NCBI RefSeq assembly: GCF_044324875.1
Contig: NZ_CP172185.1
DNA: 64,000 bases
Source of the DNA: Escherichia coli
GTDB lineage: Bacteria > Pseudomonadota > Gammaproteobacteria > Enterobacterales > Enterobacteriaceae
Direction: 5' to 3' (one strand)
Of this stretch, positions 2,539-46,825 are shown in pieces (position 1 is the first letter of the stretch; the number at the start of each line of letters is the position of its first letter). Both the position numbers and the translations under genes were made by a program. The notes beneath the pieces are model-generated. The model searched no databases. It worked only from the letters and a program-made list of their open reading frames with translations, and was not told the DNA's origin.

Positions 2539-4203
2539 TTAGTCAATTTCGTTGGGATCAAGTGCACCGGGAATATTTTTGATCTCTTCCCAGCGTTCCC
2601 CTTGCAGGCGGTAACCTGTAGCCGGTCCGGCGTAATCATTGATGTCATTGACCGCTGAGAGCACTTGTCCGTCATCGACGATGATGGCTGAGGTATGGAG
2701 ATAATCGCCGGTCAGTTTTGCTTTTTGCATGTTGAGCATGTCCTGGGCGACATCGGTAAAACCGCCTTGCGCCAGGGCTTTCACCACTTCCAGGCTGTTA
2801 CGGTTTTTATTGATAATCTCCTGGGCGAACTTGATGTCTTCCACAATATTGCGCTCAGGCATATCTTTCGAACCGTGGGCATAGGTTGCCGCTTCGACTT
2901 CTTCATCGGTAATAGGCGGTAGTCCCATACCGGCAAAGACAGCCTGTAAAGCGCGAGCGGCTTTATTGCGGATAGCGATAACATCTTCTTCGCGTACTGG
3001 TCGCAGCCCGCCATCAACCTTCAGGTCACGCTGAATGACGTTGTAATCATCGAAGTCTTCAGCATCTTCGTTTGAACCAGCAAACATGTTGTCGTAGTTC
3101 GGCACAGCGGAAAAACCGGAAGAGATAAAGTCGGTACCTGGCAGAAACTGCATCAGGAAACGTGCGGTACGGCGCATATCCGAGTGGGTAAAGGTCTGGT
3201 CATTACTGGAAGCGCATTCCAGATCCAGCGATGAGCAAATTAAGTTTTCCGCTAATACTGCGCGGATGCCTGATGGCACAGCCGATGGGACACCGATGCA
3301 GCTTACCGAACCATTCTGCAGACCCTGAACGCCTGCGGCTTTAGTGATGTAAATGCAACGAGCCTCGAGATAAAGCATTGATTTGCCTTCCGCGTAACCC
3401 ATCTGTACTTCTGAGCCGGAGCCGGAAGTAAAGCGCATTTTTAAGCCGCGAGAAGCATAAGATGACGCGAGAAACCCTTTTGACCACGGGGTATCATCGC
3501 CATCGGTGAAAACAGGTTCTGTACCATAGACAGAAATTGTTTCGGCGTAACAGGTGTGGCCTAACATACCGAGTTTCAGTTCGGTGGCTTCTTCCAGTGA
3601 ACACTGGGTCAAGACGCCCGGACGTCCCACCTGTGAGCCGACCAGCAGGGCGATGGCGTTGAACGGTGCATAGCGAGCAACGGCAACGGTGGTTTCCTGT
3701 TCATCAAACCCGCGCCATGCGCCTTCAGCTGCGTCGGCGGCAATTTGTACCGGGTTATCTTTAACGTTGGTGACGTGAGCCTGTTGTGATGGTGTTCGAC
3801 GGGCGCGCATTTTCTGCATCGCCATCATCATCTCTACCACGTTCATCTGCGAAACCACTTCGACGATTTTTGCAGGCGTCATTGCTGTGGTAAGGGGAAC
3901 GATATCGCTACGTTTGACATTTGGATCGCACAACATATTGGCAAGTTTTACCGAATCCATCGCGATGACTTCTTCGGCGCGAGCGAGATTGATGCCGTAG
4001 CGGGCGATAAAGTGGTCGATCAGGTCAAACTGGCTGGCGGGTTTTCCATCCAGTTCGGTAACGACGCCGTTAACAATTTTGATTGACGGTTTAGGATCGT
4101 TCGGGCTTTCCATCGCAATGAAGCCTTCTTCAATCCACTCTTTAACGAAACCGTCCTGGTTGACCGGGCGTTTTGCCAGTGCTTCAAATCTTTTCGATCT
4201 CAT
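2539..4203 (-). CDS. pduC: B12-dependent propanediol/glycerol dehydratase large subunit
   Basis: 554 aa ORF, the size and sequence of a diol dehydratase large subunit. Confidence 0.9.
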   Translation of the reverse strand: MRSKRFEALAKRPVNQDGFVKEWIEEGFIAMESPNDPKPSIKIVNGVVTELDGKPASQFDLIDHFIARYGINLARAEEVIAMDSVKLANMLCDPNVKRSDIVPLTTAMTPAKIVEVVSQMNVVEMMMAMQKMRARRTPSQQAHVTNVKDNPVQIAADAAEGAWRGFDEQETTVAVARYAPFNAIALLVGSQVGRPGVLTQCSLEEATELKLGMLGHTCYAETISVYGTEPVFTDGDDTPWSKGFLASSYASRGLKMRFTSGSGSEVQMGYAEGKSMLYLEARCIYITKAAGVQGLQNGSVSCIGVPSAVPSGIRAVLAENLICSSLDLECASSNDQTFTHSDMRRTARFLMQFLPGTDFISSGFSAVPNYDNMFAGSNEDAEDFDDYNVIQRDLKVDGGLRPVREEDVIAIRNKAARALQAVFAGMGLPPITDEEVEAATYAHGSKDMPERNIVEDIKFAQEIINKNRNSLEVVKALAQGGFTDVAQDMLNMQKAKLTGDYLHTSAIIVDDGQVLSAVNDINDYAGPATGYRLQGERWEEIKNIPGALDPNEID

Positions 4204-12234: not shown

Positions 12235-12310
12235 TGGCTCCTCTGACTGGACTCGAACCAGTGACATACGGATTAACAGTCCGCCGTTCTACCGACTGAA
12301 CTACAGAGGA
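12235..12310 (-). tRNA. asnV: tRNA-Asn (anticodon GUU)
   Basis: Reverse complement reads TCCTCTGTAGTTCAGTCGGTAGAACGGCGGACTGTTAATCCG...GGTTCGAGTCCAGTCAGAGGAGCCA, the E. coli tRNA-Asn sequence; gene name assigned by position. Confidence 0.95.
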
Positions 12311-12635
12311 ATCGTGTGAACGGGGCGCATATTAATGGCAGTGCATGGTGATGTCAAAGGGTGAAATGCATTTTTTTGTTTGTTTGCTGTCAATTTCAAC
12401 AAAGTGGTGAGCTTTCAATCTTATTGGTAATGAACCATCGTGGTGCATACCCTCCTTTTATGGGGCAGGGGAACGCGACAGCTGATAAAAAGAGCCAATG
12501 ACGAACCTATCATAATCTCTTATTTGACAGTTGGTTAGCTTGTACATCAACGCCAAAATAAAACTGGCAAGCATCTTGCAATCTGGTTGTAAGTAATGGC
12601 GGCACTTGGGCCGATTCTTATAAACCGGAGGCAAC

Positions 12636-13553
12636 ATGAACTTCAGACGCCTGAAATACTTCGTAAAAATTGTAGATATTGGTAGCCTGACCCAGGCTGC
12701 TGAAGTATTGCATATCGCACAACCAGCGCTCAGTCAGCAGGTTGCCACACTGGAAGGTGAGTTAAATCAACAGCTTTTGATTCGCACAAAACGGGGCGTT
12801 ACGCCAACTGACGCCGGAAAAATTCTCTATACCCATGCGCGGGCCATTTTACGTCAGTGTGAGCAGGCCCAACTGGCGGTGCATAACGTTGGTCAGGCAT
12901 TATCGGGGCAAGTCTCGATTGGCTTTGCGCCAGGAACCGCTGCGTCATCCATCACCATGCCCTTATTACAGGCGGTTCGCGCTGAATTCCCGGAGGTCGT
13001 TATCTATCTTCATGAAAATAGCGGTGCAGTGCTTAACGAAAAACTGATAAATCACCAACTCGATATGGCGGTGATTTATGAGCATTCCCCTGTGGCTGGT
13101 GTATCCAGTCAGGCTTTACTGAAAGAAGATCTTTTTCTGGTAGGAACTCAAGATTGCCCGGGGCAAAGCGTTGATGTTAATGCTATTGCGCAAATGAACC
13201 TCTTTCTCCCCAGTGATTACAGTGCTATTAGACTTCGTGTTGATGAGGCTTTTTCCCTACGGCGACTCACGGCAAAAGTCATTGGTGAAATTGAGTCTAT
13301 TGCCACGCTTACCGCAGCGATTGCCAGCGGCATGGGCGTTGCAGTATTACCCGAATCGGCCGCGCGTTCGTTATGTGGCGCAGTAAATGGGTGGATGTCA
13401 CGCATTACCACTCCTTCCATGAGTCTCTCTTTGTCATTAAATTTACCCGCCAGAGCGAACTTATCGCCACAGGCACAGGCAGTGAAAGAGTTGTTAATGT
13501 CAGTGATGAGTTCTCCAGTGATGGAAAAAAGGCAGTGGCAATTGGTGAGCTAA
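12636..13553 (+). CDS. nac: LysR-family nitrogen assimilation control protein
   Basis: 305 aa ORF with N-terminal LysR HTH (MNFRRLKYFVKIVDIGSLTQAAEVLHIAQPALSQQV...). Confidence 0.9.
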   Translation: MNFRRLKYFVKIVDIGSLTQAAEVLHIAQPALSQQVATLEGELNQQLLIRTKRGVTPTDAGKILYTHARAILRQCEQAQLAVHNVGQALSGQVSIGFAPGTAASSITMPLLQAVRAEFPEVVIYLHENSGAVLNEKLINHQLDMAVIYEHSPVAGVSSQALLKEDLFLVGTQDCPGQSVDVNAIAQMNLFLPSDYSAIRLRVDEAFSLRRLTAKVIGEIESIATLTAAIASGMGVAVLPESAARSLCGAVNGWMSRITTPSMSLSLSLNLPARANLSPQAQAVKELLMSVMSSPVMEKRQWQLVS

Positions 13554-13654
13554 GCGTTATATCGGGATGGAATAAGATGCGGGTTTTTATTATTTGTTAT
13601 GCCGGGCATTAGACTTTAACAATAACGGGATATCTGAACTGCCCGGAGTTTACC

Positions 13655-14605
13655 GTGAATTTCCAACAACTAAAGATAATCCGCGAGGCTGCACGTCAGG
13701 ATTACAACCTGACAGAGGTTGCGAATATGCTTTTTACCTCACAGTCAGGCGTCAGCCGTCACATTCGGGAACTGGAGGATGAACTTGGCATCGAAATATT
13801 TGTTCGACGAGGTAAGCGACTGCTGGGCATGACTGAACCGGGCAAAGCATTACTGGTCATTGCAGAACGCATTCTTAATGAAGCCAGTAATGTTCGTCGG
13901 CTTGCAGACCTGTTTACCAACGATACGTCTGGCGTTCTCACTATTGCAACGACGCATACTCAGGCACGTTATAGCTTGCCTGAGGTCATTAAAGCTTTTC
14001 GCGAACTTTTCCCGGAGGTTCGGCTGGAGCTAATCCAGGGTACGCCACAGGAAATTGCGACGTTGTTGCAAAATGGCGAAGCTGATATTGGTATCGCCAG
14101 CGAGCGTTTGAGTAATGACCCGCAGCTCGTCGCCTTCCCGTGGTTTCGTTGGCACCATAGTTTGCTTGTTCCACTCGATCATCCCTTGACGCAAATTACA
14201 CCGTTGACGCTGGAATCAATAGTGAAGTGGCCGTTAATCACTTACCGACAGGGGATTACGGGGCGCTCACGTATTGATGACGCATTTGCCCGCAAAGGTT
14301 TGCTGGCAGATATTGTATTAAGTGCGCAGGATTCTGATGTCATTAAAACCTATGTTGCTCTTGGGCTGGGGATTGGATTAGTTGCCGAACAATCCAGCGG
14401 CGAACAAGAGGAAGAGAATTTAATCCGTCTGGATACGCGGCATCTTTTCGATGCCAATACTGTATGGTTGGGACTGAAGCGAGGGCAACTTCAACGTAAC
14501 TATGTCTGGCGCTTTCTGGAACTTTGTAATGCAGGACTGTCAGTTGAGGATATCAAGCGCCAGGTGATGGAGAACAGTGAAGAGGAAATTGATTATCAGA
14601 TATAG
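13655..14605 (+). CDS. cbl: LysR-family regulator Cbl
   Basis: 316 aa ORF MNFQQLKIIREAARQDYNLTEVANMLFTSQSGVSRHIRELE...; CysB-like, adjacent to nac as in E. coli. Confidence 0.9.
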   Translation: MNFQQLKIIREAARQDYNLTEVANMLFTSQSGVSRHIRELEDELGIEIFVRRGKRLLGMTEPGKALLVIAERILNEASNVRRLADLFTNDTSGVLTIATTHTQARYSLPEVIKAFRELFPEVRLELIQGTPQEIATLLQNGEADIGIASERLSNDPQLVAFPWFRWHHSLLVPLDHPLTQITPLTLESIVKWPLITYRQGITGRSRIDDAFARKGLLADIVLSAQDSDVIKTYVALGLGIGLVAEQSSGEQEEENLIRLDTRHLFDANTVWLGLKRGQLQRNYVWRFLELCNAGLSVEDIKRQVMENSEEEIDYQI

Positions 14606-14606
14606 C

Positions 14607-14634
14607 AAAAAGCCCGCTATAAAAGCGGGCTTTT
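14607..14634. terminator. Intrinsic terminator hairpin after cbl
   Basis: AAAAAGCCCGC-TATAAA-GCGGGCTTTT immediately after the cbl stop. Confidence 0.6.
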
Positions 14635-14642
14635 CAGAAATT

Positions 14643-14718
14643 TGGCTCCTCTGACTGGACTCGAACCAGTGACATACGGATTAACAGTCCGCCGTTCTAC
14701 CGACTGAACTACAGAGGA
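14643..14718 (-). tRNA. asnU: tRNA-Asn (anticodon GUU)
   Basis: Same 76-nt tRNA-Asn sequence on the minus strand. Confidence 0.95.
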
Positions 14719-14878
14719 ATCGCTGTTGAGGCACATCTTAACGGCGAAAAATCTTTTGTCAAACCCGATTTTTAAATTTCCCAACTGTTTGCCGTTTCTA
14801 TCAACAGTTTGTTGCATTTGCAGACAATTTGTTGGCGAAAATCTTTGCAGCTTTGCTGATTCTCCCTCATTATTTGAA

Positions 14879-16366
14879 ATGTGGTTTCACTTTCTGCAAT
14901 TAAGGTCGGCTTTGAATATCTCCTCTGCTTTACGCCAGGTTGTTCACGGCACTCGCTGGCACGCCAAACGCAAGAGTTACAAAGTGTTGTTCTGGCGCGA
15001 GATAACCCCGCTTGCTGTTCCTATCTTCATGGAGAACGCCTGTGTCCTGTTGATGGGTGTCCTGAGCACTTTTCTGGTCAGCTGGCTGGGAAAAGATGCG
15101 ATGGCCGGCGTGGGATTGGCGGACAGCTTCAATATGGTCATTATGGCATTTTTTGCGGCTATCGATCTTGGTACCACTGTCGTTGTGGCATTTAGTCTCG
15201 GTAAGCGGGATCGACGACGAGCGAGGGTGGCGACGCGGCAGTCATTGGTGATCATGACGTTGTTTGCCGTGCTGTTGGCAACGCTTATTCATCATTTTGG
15301 CGAACAAATTATTGATTTCGTTGCGGGTGATGCCACGACAGAAGTTAAAGCACTGGCGTTGACTTATCTGGAGCTGACGGTACTCAGTTATCCAGCAGCT
15401 GCCATCACTTTGATTGGTAGTGGTGCACTTCGTGGTGCAGGGAATACGAAAATACCGCTACTGATTAACGGTAGCCTGAATATTCTTAATATTATTATTA
15501 GCGGCATATTGATTTACGGCCTTTTCTCCTGGCCGGGACTGGGATTTGTCGGGGCTGGGTTGGGTTTAACCATTTCTCGTTATATTGGCGCAGTGGCAAT
15601 TTTGTGGGTGCTGGCGATTGGTTTTAATCCTGCGCTAAGGATTTCGTTAAAGAGCTATTTTAAACCGCTGAATTTTAGCATTATCTGGGAAGTCATGGGG
15701 ATTGGTATTCCAGCAAGTGTCGAATCAGTATTATTTACCAGTGGTCGGTTATTAACCCAAATGTTCGTTGCCGGGATGGGGACCAGTGTTATTGCCGGAA
15801 ATTTTATCGCGTTTTCAATTGCGGCTCTTATCAACTTACCCGGAAGTGCGCTCGGCTCTGCTTCTACGATCATTACAGGCCGAAGGTTGGGAGTAGGGCA
15901 GATAGCGCAAGCAGAGATTCAGTTGCGGCATGTGTTCTGGCTGTCCACTCTTGGATTAACGGCCATCGCCTGGCTAACGGCTCCCTTTGCCGGGGTTATG
16001 GCATCGTTTTACACCCAGGATCCACAGGTTAAACATGTCGTTGTGATTCTGATTTGGCTAAATGCTTTATTTATGCCTATTTGGTCTGCCTCATGGGTGC
16101 TACCCGCTGGATTTAAGGGTGCTCGCGATGCACGTTACGCCATGTGGGTTTCTATGTTGAGCATGTGGGGTTGCCGGGTTGTAGTCGGTTATGTGCTGGG
16201 AATCATGCTTGGCTGGGGTGTGGTTGGTGTCTGGATGGGAATGTTTGCCGACTGGGCTGTGCGGGCCGTGCTGTTTTACTGGCGAATGGTTACTGGACGT
16301 TGGCTGTGGAAATATCCTCGACCTGAGCCGCAAAAGTGTGAAAAAAAGCCAGTTGTGTCGGAATAA
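14879..16366 (+). CDS. yeeO: MATE-family efflux transporter
   Basis: ORF track frame 14726..16366; start moved to an internal Met to give the roughly 495 aa I recall for YeeO; many transmembrane segments. Confidence 0.85.
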   Translation: MWFHFLQLRSALNISSALRQVVHGTRWHAKRKSYKVLFWREITPLAVPIFMENACVLLMGVLSTFLVSWLGKDAMAGVGLADSFNMVIMAFFAAIDLGTTVVVAFSLGKRDRRRARVATRQSLVIMTLFAVLLATLIHHFGEQIIDFVAGDATTEVKALALTYLELTVLSYPAAAITLIGSGALRGAGNTKIPLLINGSLNILNIIISGILIYGLFSWPGLGFVGAGLGLTISRYIGAVAILWVLAIGFNPALRISLKSYFKPLNFSIIWEVMGIGIPASVESVLFTSGRLLTQMFVAGMGTSVIAGNFIAFSIAALINLPGSALGSASTIITGRRLGVGQIAQAEIQLRHVFWLSTLGLTAIAWLTAPFAGVMASFYTQDPQVKHVVVILIWLNALFMPIWSASWVLPAGFKGARDARYAMWVSMLSMWGCRVVVGYVLGIMLGWGVVGVWMGMFADWAVRAVLFYWRMVTGRWLWKYPRPEPQKCEKKPVVSE

Positions 16367-16466
16367 ACGACAAAGTGCAGATTATTTCAGCAAACGATTT
16401 CAAATTTAAAAAACAGGCTTTGACATTGTGGATGAGCGTCGCTAATATTCGCCTCGTTCTCACGAT

Positions 16467-16542
16467 TCCTCTGTAGTTCAGTCGGTAGAACGGCGGACTG
16501 TTAATCCGTATGTCACTGGTTCGAGTCCAGTCAGAGGAGCCA
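16467..16542 (+). tRNA. asnW: tRNA-Asn (anticodon GUU)
   Basis: Plus-strand TCCTCTGTAGTTCAGTCGGTAGAACGGCGGACTGTTAATCCGTATGTCACTGGTTCGAGTCCAGTCAGAGGAGCCA. Confidence 0.95.
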
Positions 16543-22873: not shown

Positions 22874-31489
<8,616 letters not shown>

Positions 31490-31801
31490 GCTTACCTTCC
31501 CTGAACGAGCTAACATAAATGCGCCCTTTCTAGCACAGCGAAAAAAAGTAAATCCTGATAGCAATATGATTGAAAATTAATAACTTTTCGTTAAGCAGTT
31601 TTGGGTGTGAGTTGCAAGGGGGAGACTACTGAATTACTCAAGTTTTATAATCGAGGGGAAAATGGTGATGGCGTCCATAGCAAAACGCCCTCAACCATTA
31701 AGGTCGAGGGCGCTTAAGATGTCAAAAACCCGCTATCCGTTAAAAAGCAATGCTCAACTAAGGTCAGTGACATTGGGCTAAAAAAGCGAATTTTTAGAAT
31801 T

Positions 31802-31877
31802 TGGCTCCTCTGACTGGACTCGAACCAGTGACATACGGATTAACAGTCCGCCGTTCTACCGACTGAACTACAGAGGA
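31802..31877 (-). tRNA. asnT: tRNA-Asn (anticodon GUU)
   Basis: Fourth copy of the identical 76-nt tRNA-Asn sequence, minus strand. Confidence 0.95.
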
Positions 31878-32867: not shown

Positions 32868-32957
32868 CGGAGAGATGCCGGAGCGGCTGAACGGACCGGT
32901 CTCGAAAACCGGAGTGGGGGCAACTCCACCGGGGGTTCAAATCCCCCTCTCTCCGCC
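32868..32957 (+). tRNA. serU: tRNA-Ser (anticodon CGA)
   Basis: GGAGAGATGCCGGAGCGGCTGAACGGACCGGTCTCGAAAACCGGAGTGGGGGCAACTCCACCGGGGGTTCAAATCCCCCTCTCTCCGCCA: long-variable-arm class II tRNA with anticodon CGA. Confidence 0.9.
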
Positions 32958-33002
32958 AAAATTCAATCACTTATACATCATTAAGTCAGTGACAAAAATC
33001 AC

Positions 33003-33038
33003 ACTTGGAATTACTTGGAATATTTTCTTGGAATATTT
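33003..33038. repeat. Three direct CTTGGAAT repeats next to the attachment site (candidate integrase arm-type sites)
   Basis: CTTGGAAT at about 33003, 33013 and 33026, with GGAATATTTT occurring twice; lies between the tRNA-Ser 3' end and the integrase 3' end. Confidence 0.35.
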
Positions 33039-34036
33039 TCAGGTAACGGGACATCAAGTGTTGGTGAAACTTTAACCTTCCGGTCATAGATTAGCACTTG
33101 CCCTTCGGTTTTGTGACCAGAGAAAAGTTGCTTATCCCGGCTGCTTCCTTCATAGTCTGAAATTCCTTTCGCCTTCAGATCATGAAAGGTGAAGTCGGTT
33201 AAAATACCTGAAACTTTGCCTGCGCGATTTCTTGCTTCTACCCACATTTCGTTAAAGCCTTTGTACATATATCGGTTGCCGTATTGATTGCTGATCACAT
33301 AGGCGGATTTTGGTAACTGTTTTGCTTTTTCGACCGCTGCCTGTAATCGTGGACTCCATGCTTTTATCTGTTTTTTCCCTGTTTTCCCTTGCTGGATAAA
33401 GATCCCGTCGTTTCCAATCTGCTCCCATTTCAGCGATAACACATCGGAAACCCTCGCTGCACACAGATAGGCAATTTCCATTGCGATAAAAACAGGAAGG
33501 GGTGCCACGCTTAATACTGCCTGGTATTCTTTGTCGGTTACATATCGTTCGCGGTTTTTGGCCTTGAATTTACTTACTCCTGCACATGGGTTAGCCTTCA
33601 CGTACCCTCGCTCATACCCCCAACTGTAAACACGGGACATACTGCTTTTTTCATGGTTGGCTTGCGTTTTACTCTGTTCCCCTCTTTTGTCCATGTATCG
33701 ACGGATGTGTTCTGGTTTTATGGAATCCGCTGGTACCTTACCGAATACGGCAAGCAACTTTTTTTGATGTTGCAGATAATCTTTTTGTGTTCTTGGACTA
33801 AGGTCACTGTAACAGGCGCTGGCGAGGAATTTTTCCCACAAGCGACCGAATGTCATTGCACGATCGCGATTATTTACAGTTTCCTCATACTTTTTCCATA
33901 AAGCAGCTAAACCATCCTTGATGGCGGTTAGTGTTACAGATTCTCTGGATGTTGGTTTCCATACATAACTATATTTATTTGGGTATACATTTGGAGGTAA
34001 TTTTTCGTGTTCAGGATTTTTCCTTCGTCTTCCCAT
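33011..34036 (-). CDS. int: Tyrosine recombinase (phage integrase)
   Basis: 341 aa ORF adjacent to the tRNA and reading toward it; C-terminal region has tyrosine-recombinase-like R...HxxR...Y spacing (…FTFHDLKAKGISDYEGS…HKTEGQVLIYDRK…). Confidence 0.85.
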   Translation of the reverse strand: MGRRRKNPEHEKLPPNVYPNKYSYVWKPTSRESVTLTAIKDGLAALWKKYEETVNNRDRAMTFGRLWEKFLASACYSDLSPRTQKDYLQHQKKLLAVFGKVPADSIKPEHIRRYMDKRGEQSKTQANHEKSSMSRVYSWGYERGYVKANPCAGVSKFKAKNRERYVTDKEYQAVLSVAPLPVFIAMEIAYLCAARVSDVLSLKWEQIGNDGIFIQQGKTGKKQIKAWSPRLQAAVEKAKQLPKSAYVISNQYGNRYMYKGFNEMWVEARNRAGKVSGILTDFTFHDLKAKGISDYEGSSRDKQLFSGHKTEGQVLIYDRKVKVSPTLDVPLPENIPRKYSK

Positions 34037-38702: not shown

Positions 38703-39068
38703 AGGCACATACCGCTTAGTTACCGCTCTGATAATTCTTACCTGCCCGGCAATGGCGCTGATGTCAATATAAAGCGCCATTGCTGCTTCTTTGCCGATCC
38801 CGGGATGCCTTCCATTCTGATGTTTGACTTCGCCCACTGAGAAATCCTCTGTTTCCCCTTAACGCCGGGGTAGCGGAACAAAAACCTGCTGCATAGTTAA
38901 AGTTAAACCCTGCCGTCATGTTCATACGCCTCGGGCTGGCTACTTAACCCCTGACCACTGCCTGGTAACTCGAAGTATTGCCCTGCGTTCTGTGGGGCGG
39001 GGTGGGTTGGTGAAATTAGTTTATACAAAAATAAACTTAACAGTCAATCTGCAACTTAACTAAACAGT

Positions 39069-39098
39069 AAAAAATAACACTCTCTTTGAGAGTGTTTA
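39069..39098 (-). terminator. Intrinsic terminator downstream of the RelE/ParE-like toxin gene
   Basis: AACACTCTC-TTT-GAGAGTGTT perfect 9-bp stem, followed on the minus strand by a U-run. Confidence 0.5.
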
Positions 39099-39406: not shown

Positions 39407-39598
39407 TTACTGTTCACTCCGTTCCTTGCGTATTTTAGCAAAGCGTTCTGCCATTCTGCGCTCAACTTCGTCATGGGGAATTGCTGGGCGCGGATCTGCA
39501 AGGCTTGCAGCTACTTTGGCTCGCAGCCATTCGTTGTAACTGTTTTCTTGTTCAATAGTTTCAAACTCAGAAACCATTGGTGAAAGGGCCGTATTCAT
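39407..39598 (-). CDS. Putative antitoxin partner of the RelE/ParE-like toxin
   Basis: Start at internal MNTALSPMVSEF... with GGAGG 7 nt upstream; 63 aa acidic protein directly upstream of and abutting the toxin gene. Confidence 0.55.
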   Translation of the reverse strand: MNTALSPMVSEFETIEQENSYNEWLRAKVAASLADPRPAIPHDEVERRMAERFAKIRKERSEQ

Positions 39599-39627
39599 GG
39601 CACACCTCCGTCTGTGTATGGTGGTCA

Positions 39628-40026
39628 TTATGCCCGATGCCCTTTCCGGGCAGCGAGCCATCTTTCAATTGTGCGATCCATTAACTCTTTTTTGTCTTTC
39701 ATCTCCTGAAGCATTTGCTCTTGATCTTCCTCTGGAAATGCCTCAAATGTTTGAAGTAGCTCCTTTTGCCTAGGAGTTATTTTTATTATATCTTGTATTC
39801 TGTCATTTTTTTCTTCATTTAACGGTAAGAAGAACCAATACTGAGGATATCCTGTTGCTTCAGATAGTTTATCTAGATTAGCTGCTGTAGGGCTTGAGAT
39901 ACCACAAACCCATCTTTGAACGGATTGTTGAGTAATGCCAATTCTGCGCGCAAGTTCTGCCTGGCTCCAGCCTGTTACCAACAAAAGCTTCCTAATTCTA
40001 AGAGCACTAATTTCGAGTACACCCAT
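39628..40026 (-). CDS. XRE-family HTH regulator (repressor-like, paralog A)
   Basis: ORF track frame 39628..40101; HTH segment SQAELARRIGITQQSVQRW; C-terminal 45 aa paralogous to the neighbouring gene; start codon uncertain. Confidence 0.6.
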   Translation of the reverse strand: MGVLEISALRIRKLLLVTGWSQAELARRIGITQQSVQRWVCGISSPTAANLDKLSEATGYPQYWFFLPLNEEKNDRIQDIIKITPRQKELLQTFEAFPEEDQEQMLQEMKDKKELMDRTIERWLAARKGHRA

Positions 40027-40060
40027 CTGATATATCTTGTTTTTAAGAGTATGCTTCCCA

Positions 40061-40432
40061 TCAGGCGCGGCGACCTTGCTGCGCCAACCAACGTGCGACA
40101 AAATCTTCCATTGCTTCTTTTTTGTTTCTTAGTTCTTTTATGATCTCTTGCTGTTCATTATCAGGAAATGCACTAAATATTTGTAGCAATTCCAGCTGGT
40201 TAGGGGTTAATGCTATAGCTCTTGATGATGGAGACTCTGTTATGTCTTCTGGCTCAATATCAAGATAACCCCCTGGCATCCCATATGTTTGTTCAATACG
40301 TCTAGCTGCTTTTTCGCCAAACGTAGCCTTACCGCTCATTAACTGAGATAAGTAACTTTTCTCTTTGGGTGGCAAAGTTCTGTCTTTGAACCACTCTTTG
40401 AGGCGTAAACGCCGAATCTCTCTTGTTTCCAT
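40061..40432 (-). CDS. HTH regulator (CI-like repressor lacking a peptidase domain, paralog B)
   Basis: 123 aa; C-terminal segment LTPNQLELLQIFSAFPDNEQQEIIKELRNKKEAMEDFVARWLAQ resembles that of paralog A; divergent from the Cro-like gene. Confidence 0.65.
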   Translation of the reverse strand: METREIRRLRLKEWFKDRTLPPKEKSYLSQLMSGKATFGEKAARRIEQTYGMPGGYLDIEPEDITESPSSRAIALTPNQLELLQIFSAFPDNEQQEIIKELRNKKEAMEDFVARWLAQQGRRA

Positions 40433-40535
40433 ACATGCATTATCTTTAGTAATTGCGAAATAAGCAAATACTTGACTGGTTTATTTAGTTACGTATAAAC
40501 TTTTGCTTGCACTAAAGTATGTTGAGATCGAAATC

Positions 40536-40823
40536 ATGACTCTAAAGGAATTCATCAAATCATTAAAAACTGGAGAAGCAAAAAAATTTGCTGCCAACCT
40601 TGGTGTGTCTCCGTCCTTCTTGTCTCAAATGGCATCTGGCAGTTCACCAGTGTCTCCTGTTCGTGCGTTAATGATAGAAGCAGAAACTGCAGGGCATGTT
40701 ACAAGAAGAGAGTTGAGGCCGAATGACTGGGATCTTATATGGCCGGAATACACCGGAATTACGCCCCCTTCAAGTCATAAATATGAGCTTAACACCAAAA
40801 AAGTTGATGGGGTTGATTCATGA
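40536..40823 (+). CDS. Cro/YdaS-like small DNA-binding protein
   Basis: Start at internal MTLKEFIKSLKTGEAKKFAANLGVSPSFLSQM...; divergent from the repressor genes. Confidence 0.55.
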   Translation: MTLKEFIKSLKTGEAKKFAANLGVSPSFLSQMASGSSPVSPVRALMIEAETAGHVTRRELRPNDWDLIWPEYTGITPPSSHKYELNTKKVDGVDS

Positions 40824-41245
40824 AAATCAAACATGAGCACATCCGCATGGCGATGAATGCCTGGGCGCATCCGGACGGCGAAAAAGTACCGGCTGCGAAA
40901 ATTACCAAAGCGTATTTCGAACTGGGTATGACGTTCCCGGAACTGTACGACGACAGCCACCCTGAAGCCCTGGCGCGTAATACCCAGAAAATTTTCCGCT
41001 GGGTAGAGAAAGACACCCCTGATGCAGTTGAAAAAATTCAGGCGTTGTTACCAGCGATCGAAAAGGCAATGCCACCTTTGCTGGTGGCCAGAATGCGCAG
41101 CCACAGTTCAGCTTATTTTCGGGAGCTGGTGGAGATGCGGGAACGACTGGTGAGAGACGCTGATGATTTTGTCGCGGTGGCAATAGCTGGCTTCAACCAG
41201 ATCAACCGTGGTGGCCCGGCCGGAAATGCTGTGGCTGTGCATTGA
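40820..41245 (+). CDS. YdaT-like / CII-position early regulator
   Basis: 141 aa ORF overlapping the Cro-like stop; gene order resembles Rac ydaS-ydaT-ydaU-ydaV. Confidence 0.4.
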   Translation: MKIKHEHIRMAMNAWAHPDGEKVPAAKITKAYFELGMTFPELYDDSHPEALARNTQKIFRWVEKDTPDAVEKIQALLPAIEKAMPPLLVARMRSHSSAYFRELVEMRERLVRDADDFVAVAIAGFNQINRGGPAGNAVAVH

Positions 41246-44549: not shown

Positions 44550-45215
44550 ATGACTATTGCTGATTTCAAACGGCCTAAATTGGAGCTCCCGAACGGGGCA
44601 AACAAACTACTACTGCACTCTTGCTGTGCTCCATGTTCCGGTGAAGTGATGGAGGCGCTTCAGGCCTCGGGAATCGACTACACCATCTTTTTCTACAACC
44701 CGAACATTCATCCTCAGAAAGAGTATTTAATTCGTAAGGATGAAAATATTCGCTTTGCTGAACAACACGGCGTGCCGTTTATCGATGCTGATTACGACAC
44801 CGACAACTGGTTTGAACGTGCCAAAGGAATGGAATGGGAGCCTGAGAGGGGGATCCGTTGTACCATGTGTTTTGACATGCGTTTTGAGCGGACAGCGTTG
44901 TACGCTGCTGAAAATGGTTTCAGTGTGATCAGCAGTTCACTGGGCATTTCACGCTGGAAAAATATGCAGCAGGTTAACGAGTGTGGGCGGCGAGCTGTTG
45001 CGCATTATCCGGGTATGGTGTACTGGGATTATAACTGGCGCAAGCAGGGCGGCTCGTCCCGTATGATTGAAATCAGCAAGCGCGAAAAATTCTATCAGCA
45101 GGAATATTGTGGCTGTGTGTATTCTCTGCGCGATACCAATCTACACCGCAAATCTCAGGGACGCCCTCTTATAAAAATTGGCCAACTCCACTACGGAAAA
45201 GAAGAGAAGGAGTGA
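44550..45215 (+). CDS. DUF208 / QueH-like protein (putative B12-independent epoxyqueuosine reductase)
   Basis: 221 aa with N-terminal [14 protein letters not shown] motif and further conserved Cys (…[10 protein letters not shown]…, …EYCGCVYS…), resembling what I remember of the DUF208/QueH family; own promoter-like region upstream. Confidence 0.55.
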
Positions 45216-45451
45216 TTTTATGGATCACCTTTCTGATTGATTTCATATTGGCGAGGTGACGGGAGTTAAGTAGAATTGCTGCGGGTGCTTGAGGCTATCT
45301 GCCTCGGGCATGAACACCAACGGCAGATAGAGAAAAGCCCCAGTTAACATTATGCGTCCTGCAAGACGCTTAACATTAATCTGAGGCAGAATCTATGTCT
45401 AGCAAATGTAGGTTAGCCTCTTACGTGCCGAAAGGCAAGGAGAAGCAGGCT

Positions 45452-45607
45452 ATGAAGCAGCAAAAGGCGATGTTAGTCGCCCTGATCGTCATCTGTATTA
45501 CCGTCATTGTGACGGCACTGGTAACGAGGAAAGACCTCTGCGAGGTACGAATCCGAACCGGCCAGACGGAGGTCGCTGTCTTCACAGCTTACGAACCTGA
45601 GGAGTAA
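45452..45607 (+). CDS. hok: Hok/Gef-family type I toxin
   Basis: MKQQKAMLVALIVICITVIVTALVTRKDLCEVRIRTGQTEVAVFTAYEPEE, 51 aa, near-identical to chromosomal Hok/Gef peptides; the ORF track frame extends in-frame upstream to 45395. Confidence 0.8.
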   Translation: MKQQKAMLVALIVICITVIVTALVTRKDLCEVRIRTGQTEVAVFTAYEPEE

Positions 45608-46127: not shown

Positions 46128-46427
46128 CTATAAAATATTAGATTCATAATTTTGTCCGCCGTGGTAAACGCCAGCGATAAAGACTTTATTGCCATCAACG
46201 GCAAAAGCAATAATCGTTCTGTGTCGGAAATGAGTTACCCGCATCCCCTGGCGAATATCATCGCGTTTATTGCCCCGATGCGGGAATGTAGAAAACCCAT
46301 CAAGATAATCAAGAAGCGCATTGGCATAATTGTCAGCAATGACGCTTCTTGCTTTCTCCGTTATATATCTGTGCAGGTTTATTATCTGCTGTTCGGCCTC
46401 GGGGGTAATGATGACTTCATATGTCAT
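46128..46427 (-). CDS. parE: ParE/RelE-family type II toxin
   Basis: 99 aa MTYEVIITPEAEQQIINLHRYI...; immediately downstream of a ParD-like gene. Confidence 0.7.
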   Translation of the reverse strand: MTYEVIITPEAEQQIINLHRYITEKARSVIADNYANALLDYLDGFSTFPHRGNKRDDIRQGMRVTHFRHRTIIAFAVDGNKVFIAGVYHGGQNYESNIL

Positions 46428-46432
46428 GCAGA

Positions 46433-46690
46433 TTACTTCCCGGATCGAATCGCGGCGCGAACCTGTGAAATGGAGCGTCCGTTGTTTGGATTTTCGCGGA
46501 TAGAATCAAGAGAGGGGGCGGCTGAATGCGTTAACCACGCTTCGATTGCTTTATCGCGCTCATTCAGTGCACGAAGCCCTTCACGAATGACCTCGCTTTC
46601 TGAAGCATAGGCACCGGAAGCCACACGGGCGCGCACCATGTCAGCCATCTCGTTAGTTAATGTAATGCTGAATTGTTGGGTTGTACGCAT
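46433..46690 (-). CDS. parD: ParD-like antitoxin
   Basis: Start at internal MRTTQQFSITLTNEMADMVRARVASGAYASESEVIREGLRAL... (ParD-like N-terminus); 5 nt upstream of parE. Confidence 0.65.
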   Translation of the reverse strand: MRTTQQFSITLTNEMADMVRARVASGAYASESEVIREGLRALNERDKAIEAWLTHSAAPSLDSIRENPNNGRSISQVRAAIRSGK

Positions 46691-46825
46691 GGTAAACCTC
46701 ACGGAGTAGGATAGAACACTATTCGATGATAGCACGCTGCCTGTTGACGACAACAGAAATCAGAGACAATATTGCCGCACGCCAGCCTGAACAACTGGCA
46801 CCTGCTGCGCCAGCAGAGAAAACAA

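Follow-up and report, generated by a model that had tools for sequence, protein, structure and literature searches.

Within a 64,000-nucleotide (nt) stretch of Escherichia coli DNA (NCBI RefSeq assembly GCF_044324875.1, contig NZ_CP172185.1; termed the window below), the minus strand of positions 39,628 to 40,535 carries two complete repressor-like open reading frames (ORFs) arranged head to tail, with gene A lying 5′ of gene B, and both diverge from a cro-like gene. By homology to an experimentally dissected system, the locus is very probably the immunity (lysis/lysogeny) switch of a CP-933P/Rac-like lambdoid E. coli prophage; the system is an already known one, and its paaR2-paaA2-parE2/ydaS-ydaT identity had been missed by the original prediction for this locus. 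What is newly seen is a conserved second repressor, the product of gene B, that resides without cognate operators inside the PaaR2 operon. The toxin-antitoxin (TA) genes paaA-parE do not directly follow A, unlike in the three-component order of CP-933P, since the gene for the 132-amino acid (aa) repressor B intervenes; A-B-paaA-parE make up a four-gene operon closed by a terminator (Table 1). The tandem pair constitutes a separate, stable immunity type, and no account of tandem repressors in lambdoid immunity regions was found in the searchable, and incomplete, literature.

Most of what had been predicted for the two ORFs was borne out. Both are intact, and the C-terminal segment that they had been said to share over about 45 aa was recovered by BLASTP as the one significant segment between them, covering ∼50 aa (A 73–123/B 81–132, 48% identity, E = 4e-15). 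A helix-turn-helix (HTH) is present in each: B matched Pfam HTH_3 (E = 1.7e-11), and residues 1–62 of A matched the solved N-terminal domain of PaaR2, described as ‘phage repressor protein CI’ (PDB 7NKV/8C3K/8C3L, E = 4e-31), to which they are ∼90% identical. Neither protein gave a Peptidase_S24 match, in line with the proposed lack of a LexA/CI-type autopeptidase; the divergent Cro-like gene is real and proved to be ydaS, of which the start codon is 103 bp from that of A; and the two-copy state is indeed uncommon, the tandem being a minority arrangement among related prophages. The possibility that A and B are one gene split by a frameshift was rejected, because each aligns over its full length to single-copy homologues, A with PaaR2 (1–123) and B with a PaaR1-type protein (1–132). 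Only the view of the pair as a tandem duplicate of the immunity repressor did not stand.

Genes A and B represent two distinct repressor types

Gene A encodes a PaaR2-type repressor that is 71% identical to PaaR2 of O157:H7 over the full length, and A-type relatives are found as single-copy genes in other prophages (71–97% identity); a Pfam search with A returned zero match. Gene B belongs to a widespread family of 132–133-aa XRE repressors (70 matches) and its product shares 62–69% identity with PaaR1-type repressors that occur in single copy. In E. coli prophages, where paaA-parE follows, and in Salmonella prophages, where it does not, family members stand alone at the CI position. Among them is the regulator of a second O157:H7 locus (L016), which is 62% identical to B and precedes a PaaA/ParE pair with 73% and 67% identity to that of the window; from its position and neighbours, and not from the original paper, we take this regulator to be the published PaaR1. 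A paaR1-paaA1-parE1 homologue of the paaR2 system resides on CP-933M (PMC8630535).

When compared with the NCBIfam model of DicA (NF007257), B aligned over its full length (E = 3e-16) with 59.3 bits and the C-terminal part of A aligned to the same region with 30.9 bits, both below the cut-off of 101; on these scores, A and B are DicA-like and not DicA. PaaR2 of O157 and a PaaR1-type protein are alignable from residue ∼28 to the end (42% identity, E = 2e-20), and one PHROG (5736) takes in both A and B. Because of this alignment, the common PHROG and the common DicA region, A and B are judged to be old paralogues of two distinct immunity types and not recent duplicates. A recent tandem duplication with both copies working on the same operators, as the original prediction had framed it, is extremely improbable: although the two genes are adjacent, equally oriented and alike in domain layout and share the C-terminal segment, their N-terminal domains have no significant similarity and are not alignable pairwise, their C-terminal parts are just 48% identical, both have nearer single-copy relatives elsewhere (at the identities given above), and the limits of B fall at gene ends and at points where the closest relative changes.

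The AlphaFold model of B comprises a five-helix N-terminal domain, a disordered linker (residues 67–84), a short helix and a long helix (residues 99–129). Its N-terminal domain superposes on P22 C2 and on the 434 repressor/Cro at ∼1–1.6 Å, and SinR/SinI are among the fold matches of the model, while the C-terminal helices, modelled as a monomer, reached moderate confidence only. A solved structure of the C-terminal module was not found in the PDB, where the PaaR2 entries consist of the N-terminal domain alone.

The reading frame of B opens at a TTG at 40101 (157 aa), and the ATG at 40026 is invariant in an alignment of five related loci. Across these loci the region 5′ of the ATG carries 4-nt and 15-nt insertions or deletions, and the 157-aa form, which would overlap A, was rejected because its frame is broken by the 4-nt ones. 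The A–B spacer varies between 19 and 34 nt among related loci, and conservation in it is confined to the ∼14 nt next to the ATG; a promoter of its own or a leaderless start for B in the tandem was rejected, as no acceptable −10 element is present. At the other end, the B products of L020 (1982–2377) and of the window end differently yet remain short (…AAQQKVT and …AARKGHRA, respectively), and such differing ends indicate that the last ∼8 residues of B are unconstrained. One E. coli tandem lineage (L018 2416–2877 and L013 4061–4522) has a 1-nt deletion that removes the B stop codon and adds ∼22 aa (153–154 aa) across the paaA start. A 78-aa frameshifted ‘representative’ of the B cluster was discarded, as it is a single short Logan contig and no lineage.

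Conservation and co-inheritance of the tandem pair

Selection on the two genes was assessed by comparing the window with three diverged tandem loci, at synonymous divergences (dS) of 0.18–0.43. The ratio of nonsynonymous to synonymous substitution rates (dN/dS) was 0.03–0.11 for A and 0.16–0.24 for B, the latter divided into 0.08–0.20 for the N-terminal domain and 0.22–0.40 for the linker plus C-terminal part, and the recognition helix of B is invariant among the tandem loci. These ratios place B under purifying selection (dN/dS ∼0.2).

The exact A protein is encoded on 806 contigs and the exact B protein on 835, and A and B are identical in seven prophages with differing flanking modules, i.e. 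prophages that are differently mosaic. A search of 5,426 complete E. coli genomes yielded 16 with the tandem at ∼88% DNA identity, and B is kept in 16 of the 18 that have the A subtype of the window. In the IMG/VR database, the MGVLEIS subtype of B was found at 10 loci, each of them tandem, and the 70 further B-family loci have a single copy; similarly, all 11 loci with the A subtype of the window are tandem and the 50 loci with an O157-type A are not. Because of the purifying selection and the co-inheritance with A, B is regarded as a still functional gene.

The operators and cro of the locus go with A alone

The roles of A, YdaS, YdaT and PaaA2-ParE2 were adopted from CP-933P by homology. 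In that prophage, PaaR2, YdaS and YdaT act like CI, Cro and CII, PaaR2 binds the right and left operator regions (OR and OL) and forms octamers, and the switch is bistable (PMC8630535); the footprints of PaaR2 and YdaS span its 97-bp intergenic region, and the consensus half-site was published as GTTTAGTAA (PMC8630535). In the window, repeats resembling GTTTAGTAA are found in both the OR and the OL regions, and CTTTAGTAA has an exact match at 40444. The rightward and leftward promoters (PR and PL) are both TTGACT-18-TAAACT and are joined by a 30-nt inverted repeat (77%); CP-933P, too, carries to the left of parE2 a PL-like promoter that has the same hexamers as its PR (PL933P; PMC8630535), and the PL/OL region is kept in an A-only locus (L019). 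A hybrid immunity, with an A-type OR and a B-type OL so that both repressors would be required, was rejected, because the hexamers and repeats of PL/OL equal those of PR/OR and are conserved in L019.

The cro analogue also goes with A. The type of cro covaries with the OR-adjacent repressor, A-type loci carrying the YdaS that begins MTLKEFIKSL and PaaR1-type loci an unrelated YdaS, and the YdaS of the window has no similarity to that of PaaR1-type loci. The CII analogue YdaT matched PDB 3C4R and 8BT1 (E = 5e-89 and 4e-81, respectively), and its site TTGATTN6AATCAA, as defined in PMC9986795, has a single exact match in the window (0.01 expected by chance). The GATAAT −10 element of the repressor maintenance promoter (PRM) ends 6 nt 5′ of the A ATG, a geometry as in CP-933P of O157:H7, where the paaR2 mRNA is leaderless with its transcript start mapped to the ATG (PMC8630535); A is probably translated from a leaderless mRNA as well. 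A form of A truncated to 65 aa in some assemblies is a gene-caller artefact, given that the DNA of L031 and L034 (4595–4966) equals 40061–40432 of the window, and such calls are likely due to the absent ribosome-binding site of a leaderless gene. RefSeq labels A as ‘hypothetical protein’ and YdaT as ‘toxin YdaT family protein’.

Modelled on CP-933P, A would bind the YTTTAGTRA-type operators over PRM/PR and PL in competition with YdaS, a leaderless PRM transcript would drive A, and YdaT would act at its operator OM. The PRM operon would run on through B, paaA and parE to the terminator, with PaaA2-ParE2 as an addiction module.

Operators of the B family were derived from 80 IMG/VR loci grouped by recognition helix, of which the general pattern is xQQ[ST][VI]Q[KRQ]W. 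Each of the six single-copy helix subtypes has three 15-bp ACAnn-N5-nnTGT sites, 24–25 bp apart, 5′ of the gene, and similar sites are present at PL too. The helices AQQSVQKW, TQQTVQQW and SQQTVQRW pair with ACACT..AGTGT, ACAGT..ACTGT and ACACA..TGTGT, respectively, and the AQQSVQKW-type OR of the L003/L017 prophages contains ACACTTTTTTTGTGT and ACACTTTWAAAGTTA. In the single-copy loci (L047–L116), the promoter-proximal operator directly adjoins a TAAAAT −10 element with 6 nt between its end and the ATG, a spacing suggestive of leaderless mRNAs for single-copy B-family genes as well. The OR of the single-copy loci is very regular, the fourth base of the half-site varying with the recognition-helix variant, and this helix/half-site pairing might be used as a specificity code for the PaaR1/DicA-like family.

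The 125 nt 5′ of B are A coding sequence in all tandem loci and hold zero ACAnn-N5-nnTGT site. Over the whole window, the loose ACAnn-N5-nnTGT pattern had 13 matches versus ∼16 expected, none of them in the switch or in prophage intergenic regions; searches with AACTTTNAAAGTG (≤2 mismatches) and with ACAC/ACAG/ACAA-N7 palindromes gave no site in or near the switch, with counts not above chance; and site pairs spaced 20–30 bp occurred solely inside tRNA-Asn genes. Just A is matched to the operators and the cro present here, and B has neither cognate operators nor a cognate cro in cis.

Probable mosaic origin of the cassette and its link to paaA-parE

The tandem was compared with its nearest A-only locus (L019; E. 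coli STEC17-183), in which A is 97% identical. Homology between the two breaks off with the A stop codon (40061) and returns at 39599, 1 nt before the paaA ATG, the extra 461 bp being B plus its two spacers. The first two-thirds of B resemble other tandem loci. From ∼30 codons before the end of B, through the spacer and paaA and across most of parE, the sequence is 95–98% identical to a B-only locus (L017), with 98% identity at the junction of B and paaA, and the 5′ end of paaA with its Shine-Dalgarno sequence is of the B-linked type. All this fits a mosaic window, in which the cassette was joined by recombination of heteroimmune prophages that share paaA-parE. B and the paaA 5′ end would have been placed behind A in that event, and B would have lost its promoter, three operators and own cro. 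It has been suggested that the addictive paaA2-parE2 penalises recombinants that lose the pair (PMC8630535), and the mosaic boundaries are consistent with such a penalty.

The same boundaries bear on a role of B in the TA unit, namely that B-paaA-parE moves as a block and B regulates or serves paaA-parE. Such a role would agree with the B-linked junction and paaA 5′ end, with the position of paaA-parE directly 3′ of the B-type gene in 58 of the 70 single-copy IMG/VR loci, and with the published definition of paaR-paaA-parE as three-component systems, PaaA2 being devoid of a DNA-binding domain (PMC8630535). It is nevertheless improbable, as single-copy loci hold the B operators upstream in OR and none between B and paaA, A-only loci run the same TA pair without B, and the other 12 of the 70 B-only loci have no TA pair; moreover, promoter-like matches numbered 3 versus 3.3 expected by chance, so the lone one inside B is within chance.

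Candidate roles of B

That B is translated, which DNA it targets and what it does are inferred, and repression in trans is the most economical role. In lysogens, the PRM transcript would yield B in small amounts, probably via reinitiation past the A stop codon, and B would repress in trans the PR/PL of PaaR1-type (ACAC-operator) phages or co-resident prophages, thereby adding a second immunity specificity. Action in trans is proposed because the recognition helix of B, QQSVQRW, is nearly the one found in single-copy relatives with ACAC(T)-N5-(A)GTGT operators and because no such site is found in the prophage. This role is put forward tentatively, at clearly less than an even chance, and the best explanation as a whole, with the role of B included, comes close to an even chance and does not reach it. 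A fuller version, a double-immunity switch in which one PRM operon encodes two repressor specificities with a common oligomerisation module, A and B maybe form hetero-oligomers and paaA-parE serves as an anchor, is conceivable but doubtful. Both the second-specificity repressor and the heterodimer partner had been among the options of the original prediction, and both are live.

Hetero-oligomerisation is the main rival to repression in trans: B could be an oligomerisation partner or modulator of A, its co-assembly tuning cooperativity, OR–OL looping and bistability, either as a dominant-negative or as a stabiliser. SinR and SlrR of Bacillus subtilis are paralogous repressors that act by co-assembly, and SinR/SinI, as mentioned, appear among the fold matches of B. 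The C-terminal modules of A and B are 48% identical, A has the same residue in 9 of the 12 C-terminal columns that never vary within the B family, and moderate confidence of the C-terminal helices as a monomer is typical of an interface. Furthermore, A and B would be on one transcript, their subtypes are strictly co-inherited, and B is without DNA sites of its own in cis. In PaaR2, which forms octamers, the C-terminal helical module drives the dimer-to-octamer assembly (PMC8630535). However, the DNA-binding domain of B is more tightly constrained than its linker and C-terminal part (dN/dS above), which is unexpected if the C-terminal module alone mattered; this module is no nearer to A (48%) than to O157 PaaR2 (54%), the 3′ end of B recombines freely with B-only prophages, and A-only loci with the same OR/OL exist. 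A partner role is thus considered unlikely, though less so than a TA-linked role or a relic.

Several observations weigh against repression in trans. Neither a Shine-Dalgarno sequence nor a promoter for B was found in the A–B spacer by sequence reading and promoter scan, and the operator scan stops at the end of the window, which lies inside the prophage, so that sites farther right are outside it. No phage with an MGVLEIS-type B as its sole repressor is known, for which reason the trans target is predicted from the similarity of recognition helices alone; the helix-to-operator mapping is imperfect across subtypes, and the N-terminal domain of B is ∼66% identical to that of its nearest single-copy relatives, so that its specificity could have shifted. 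B is also absent in 2 of the 18 complete genomes with the A subtype of the window and frameshifted in 1 of the 16 complete-genome tandem loci (L001, RM10466, ∼3860–3900, in a T-run near codon 15), and it is dispensable at least in some cryptic prophages.

These two deletions and the RM10466 frameshift, together with the variable C-terminal end and the lack of a Shine-Dalgarno sequence, promoter, operators and cro, would equally suit a relic, i.e. an immunity swap that kept the addictive paaA-parE and dragged the old repressor along, not yet degraded; the penalty on the loss of paaA2-parE2 (PMC8630535) would explain a crossover outside the TA pair. This alternative is even less probable than a TA-linked role, because the dN/dS of B holds across lineages up to a dS of 0.43, its frame is unbroken in all but 1 of the 16 complete-genome loci and in 10 of 10 IMG/VR loci, and its recognition helix is invariant; besides, the certainly functional A is frameshifted equally often (1 of 16 tandem loci, mid-gene in L022, Z1323CEC0012, ∼2600–2611). 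Repression in trans by B is kept as the working explanation.

Induction and neighbouring genes

Induction of the prophage by a Rha-type antirepressor, as originally proposed, is a reasonable analogy, without support in the window. The candidate ORF (Table 1), assigned Pfam Phage_ASH and Phage_pRha in the gene table of an identical locus, gave weak matches to antirepressor families, and it lies downstream of PL, a promoter itself under repressor control. Antirepressor control is documented for the Gifsy/DicA/RacR repressor group (PMC3121763), and PaaR2 is without a cleavage motif and is unresponsive to mitomycin C (PMC8630535). A search of the window found no convincing LexA box in the early region; CTGTN8ACAG has two matches in the window, one at 46741 before a ParD/ParE pair and the other in a structural gene, and the prophage extends past the window.

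This ParD/ParE pair is a second type II TA pair, located in a nin-like region (46128–46756) and composed of a ParD antitoxin on the minus strand (∼46433–46690; TIGR02606, E = 1.5e-14) and a RelE/ParE-like ORF (46128–46427). The match upstream of it, at 46741–46756, is the perfect palindrome CTGTTGACGACAACAG, which fits the loose LexA-box pattern and is more likely the operator of the pair than a LexA box. With a Hok-family type I toxin in a plus-strand ORF at 45395–45607 (NF007279, E = 5e-13), the prophage has at least three toxin systems. A 221-aa ORF (44550–45215, plus) that lies immediately to the right of the replication genes is listed as Pfam QueH (PF02677) in the tables of identical loci and has no NCBIfam match.

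The flanking amn-shiA DNA is 98.7% identical to E. coli genomes, which identifies the host as E. coli. The prophage adjoins tRNA-Ser(CGA), which its integrase gene (33011–34036) abuts, and to its left lie four tRNA-Asn genes and a 2,896-aa ORF (22874–31564, minus), in the stretches 12235–16542, 22874–31877 and 32869–32958.

Table 1. Features of the immunity region and leftward operon, in window coordinates
Feature	Position	Strand	Basis
ydaT, CII analogue, 141 aa	40820..41245	plus	phrog_163 ‘CII-like transcriptional activator’
YdaT operator OM TTGATTCATGAAAATCAA, at the ydaS/ydaT junction, region of the repressor establishment promoter (PRE)	40813..40830	plus	exact site
ydaS, Cro analogue, 95 aa, A-associated type	40536..40823	plus	phrog_35; 62% to CP-933P YdaS
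OR region between the A and ydaS starts	40433..40535		promoter prediction and sequence reading
YTTTAGTRA-type repeats in OR	40444-40452, 40483-40491, 40512-40520		sequence reading
PR	−35 40472-40477, −10 40496-40501	plus	promoter prediction
PRM	−10 GATAAT 40444..40439, −35 TTGCTT 40467..40462	minus	sequence reading
Gene A, PaaR2-type repressor (CI analogue), 123 aa, ATG start	40061..40432	minus	PDB 7NKV/8C3K match
A–B spacer, 34 nt	40027..40060	minus	read from sequence; promoter scan empty
Gene B, PaaR1/DicA-like XRE repressor paralogue, 132 aa	39628..40026	minus	Pfam HTH_3; DicA model alignment
paaA, PaaA2-type antitoxin, 63 aa, strong Shine-Dalgarno GGAGG	39407..39598	minus	PDB 3ZBE/5CW7, E = 2e-34
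parE, ParE2-type toxin, 94 aa	39122..39406	minus	PDB 5CW7_B, E = 3e-58
Intrinsic terminator-like hairpin 3′ of parE, 9-bp stem and T run	39076..39096	minus	sequence
PL/OL equivalent with A-type operator repeats; promoter TTGACT-18-TAAACT at 39047..39018	39010..39075	minus	hexamers equal those of PR
Ash- and Rha-domain ORF of the leftward operon, 283 aa	37138..37989	minus	phrog_995 ‘transcriptional regulator’, full length, E = 2.5e-132

Implications

The CP-933P switch is a current model of a TA pair wired into a lambda-like bistable switch, and the locus described here offers a natural variant of it. With this variant it can be tested whether a repressor retained from a recombination partner broadens the immunity range of a prophage, whether repressor paralogues with a common oligomerisation module cross-assemble, and whether paaA-parE shapes which immunity-region recombinants survive, as has been proposed (PMC8630535). 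The cassette is common, its exact proteins being found on ∼800 E. coli contigs, and it is annotated merely as ‘hypothetical protein’ and ‘helix-turn-helix domain-containing protein’ beside a misleading ‘toxin YdaT’, so that its recognition improves annotation. If B is a relic, the locus is merely one more mosaic prophage.

Comparison with known systems

The closest known system is CP-933P (Sp12) of O157:H7 (Jurenas et al. 2021, PMC8630535; for YdaT, PMC9986795), with which the window shares gene order and orientation. The identities are 71% for A, 94% for PaaA2, 95% for ParE2, 86% for YdaT and 62% for YdaS, and both loci have a PRM geometry compatible with a leaderless transcript, identical PR/PL hexamers, GTTTAGTAA-like repeats, an exact OM site and no peptidase; the start codons of A and ydaS are 103 bp apart in the window and 97 bp in CP-933P. 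Unlike CP-933P, where 20 nt separate paaR2 from paaA2, the window has a 461-bp segment with a full second repressor, and its operators have diverged, which makes it a different immunity type.

B itself resembles the PaaR1-type single-copy regulators of E. coli, Salmonella and Klebsiella prophages in full-length architecture (62–69% identity) including the C-terminal module, and in the recognition-helix pattern xQQ[ST][VI]Q[KRQ]W. These regulators sit at the CI position with their own cro, three ACAnn-N5-nnTGT operators and a −10 element 6 nt before the ATG, all of which B of the window is without.

DicA (Qin), RacR (Rac) and GfoR/GtgR (Gifsy) are likewise short HTH proteins at the CI position that lack an autocleavage domain, a group of non-cleavable lambdoid repressors (Lemire et al. 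2011, PMC3121763). The DicA model is matched by the C-terminal part of A as well as by that of B, and the best relatives of B in the phage database are the CI proteins of Gifsy-1/-2 (34%); unlike in Gifsy, the LexA-controlled small antirepressor module that serves as the Gifsy inducer was not found in the window. Finally, SinR/SlrR/SinI of B. subtilis offer an analogy only, in that an XRE HTH and a helical oligomerisation domain are common to paralogues that hetero-oligomerise; unlike SinR/SlrR, which belong to a non-phage system and have no sequence relation to A and B past the HTH fold, hetero-oligomers of A and B are hypothetical.

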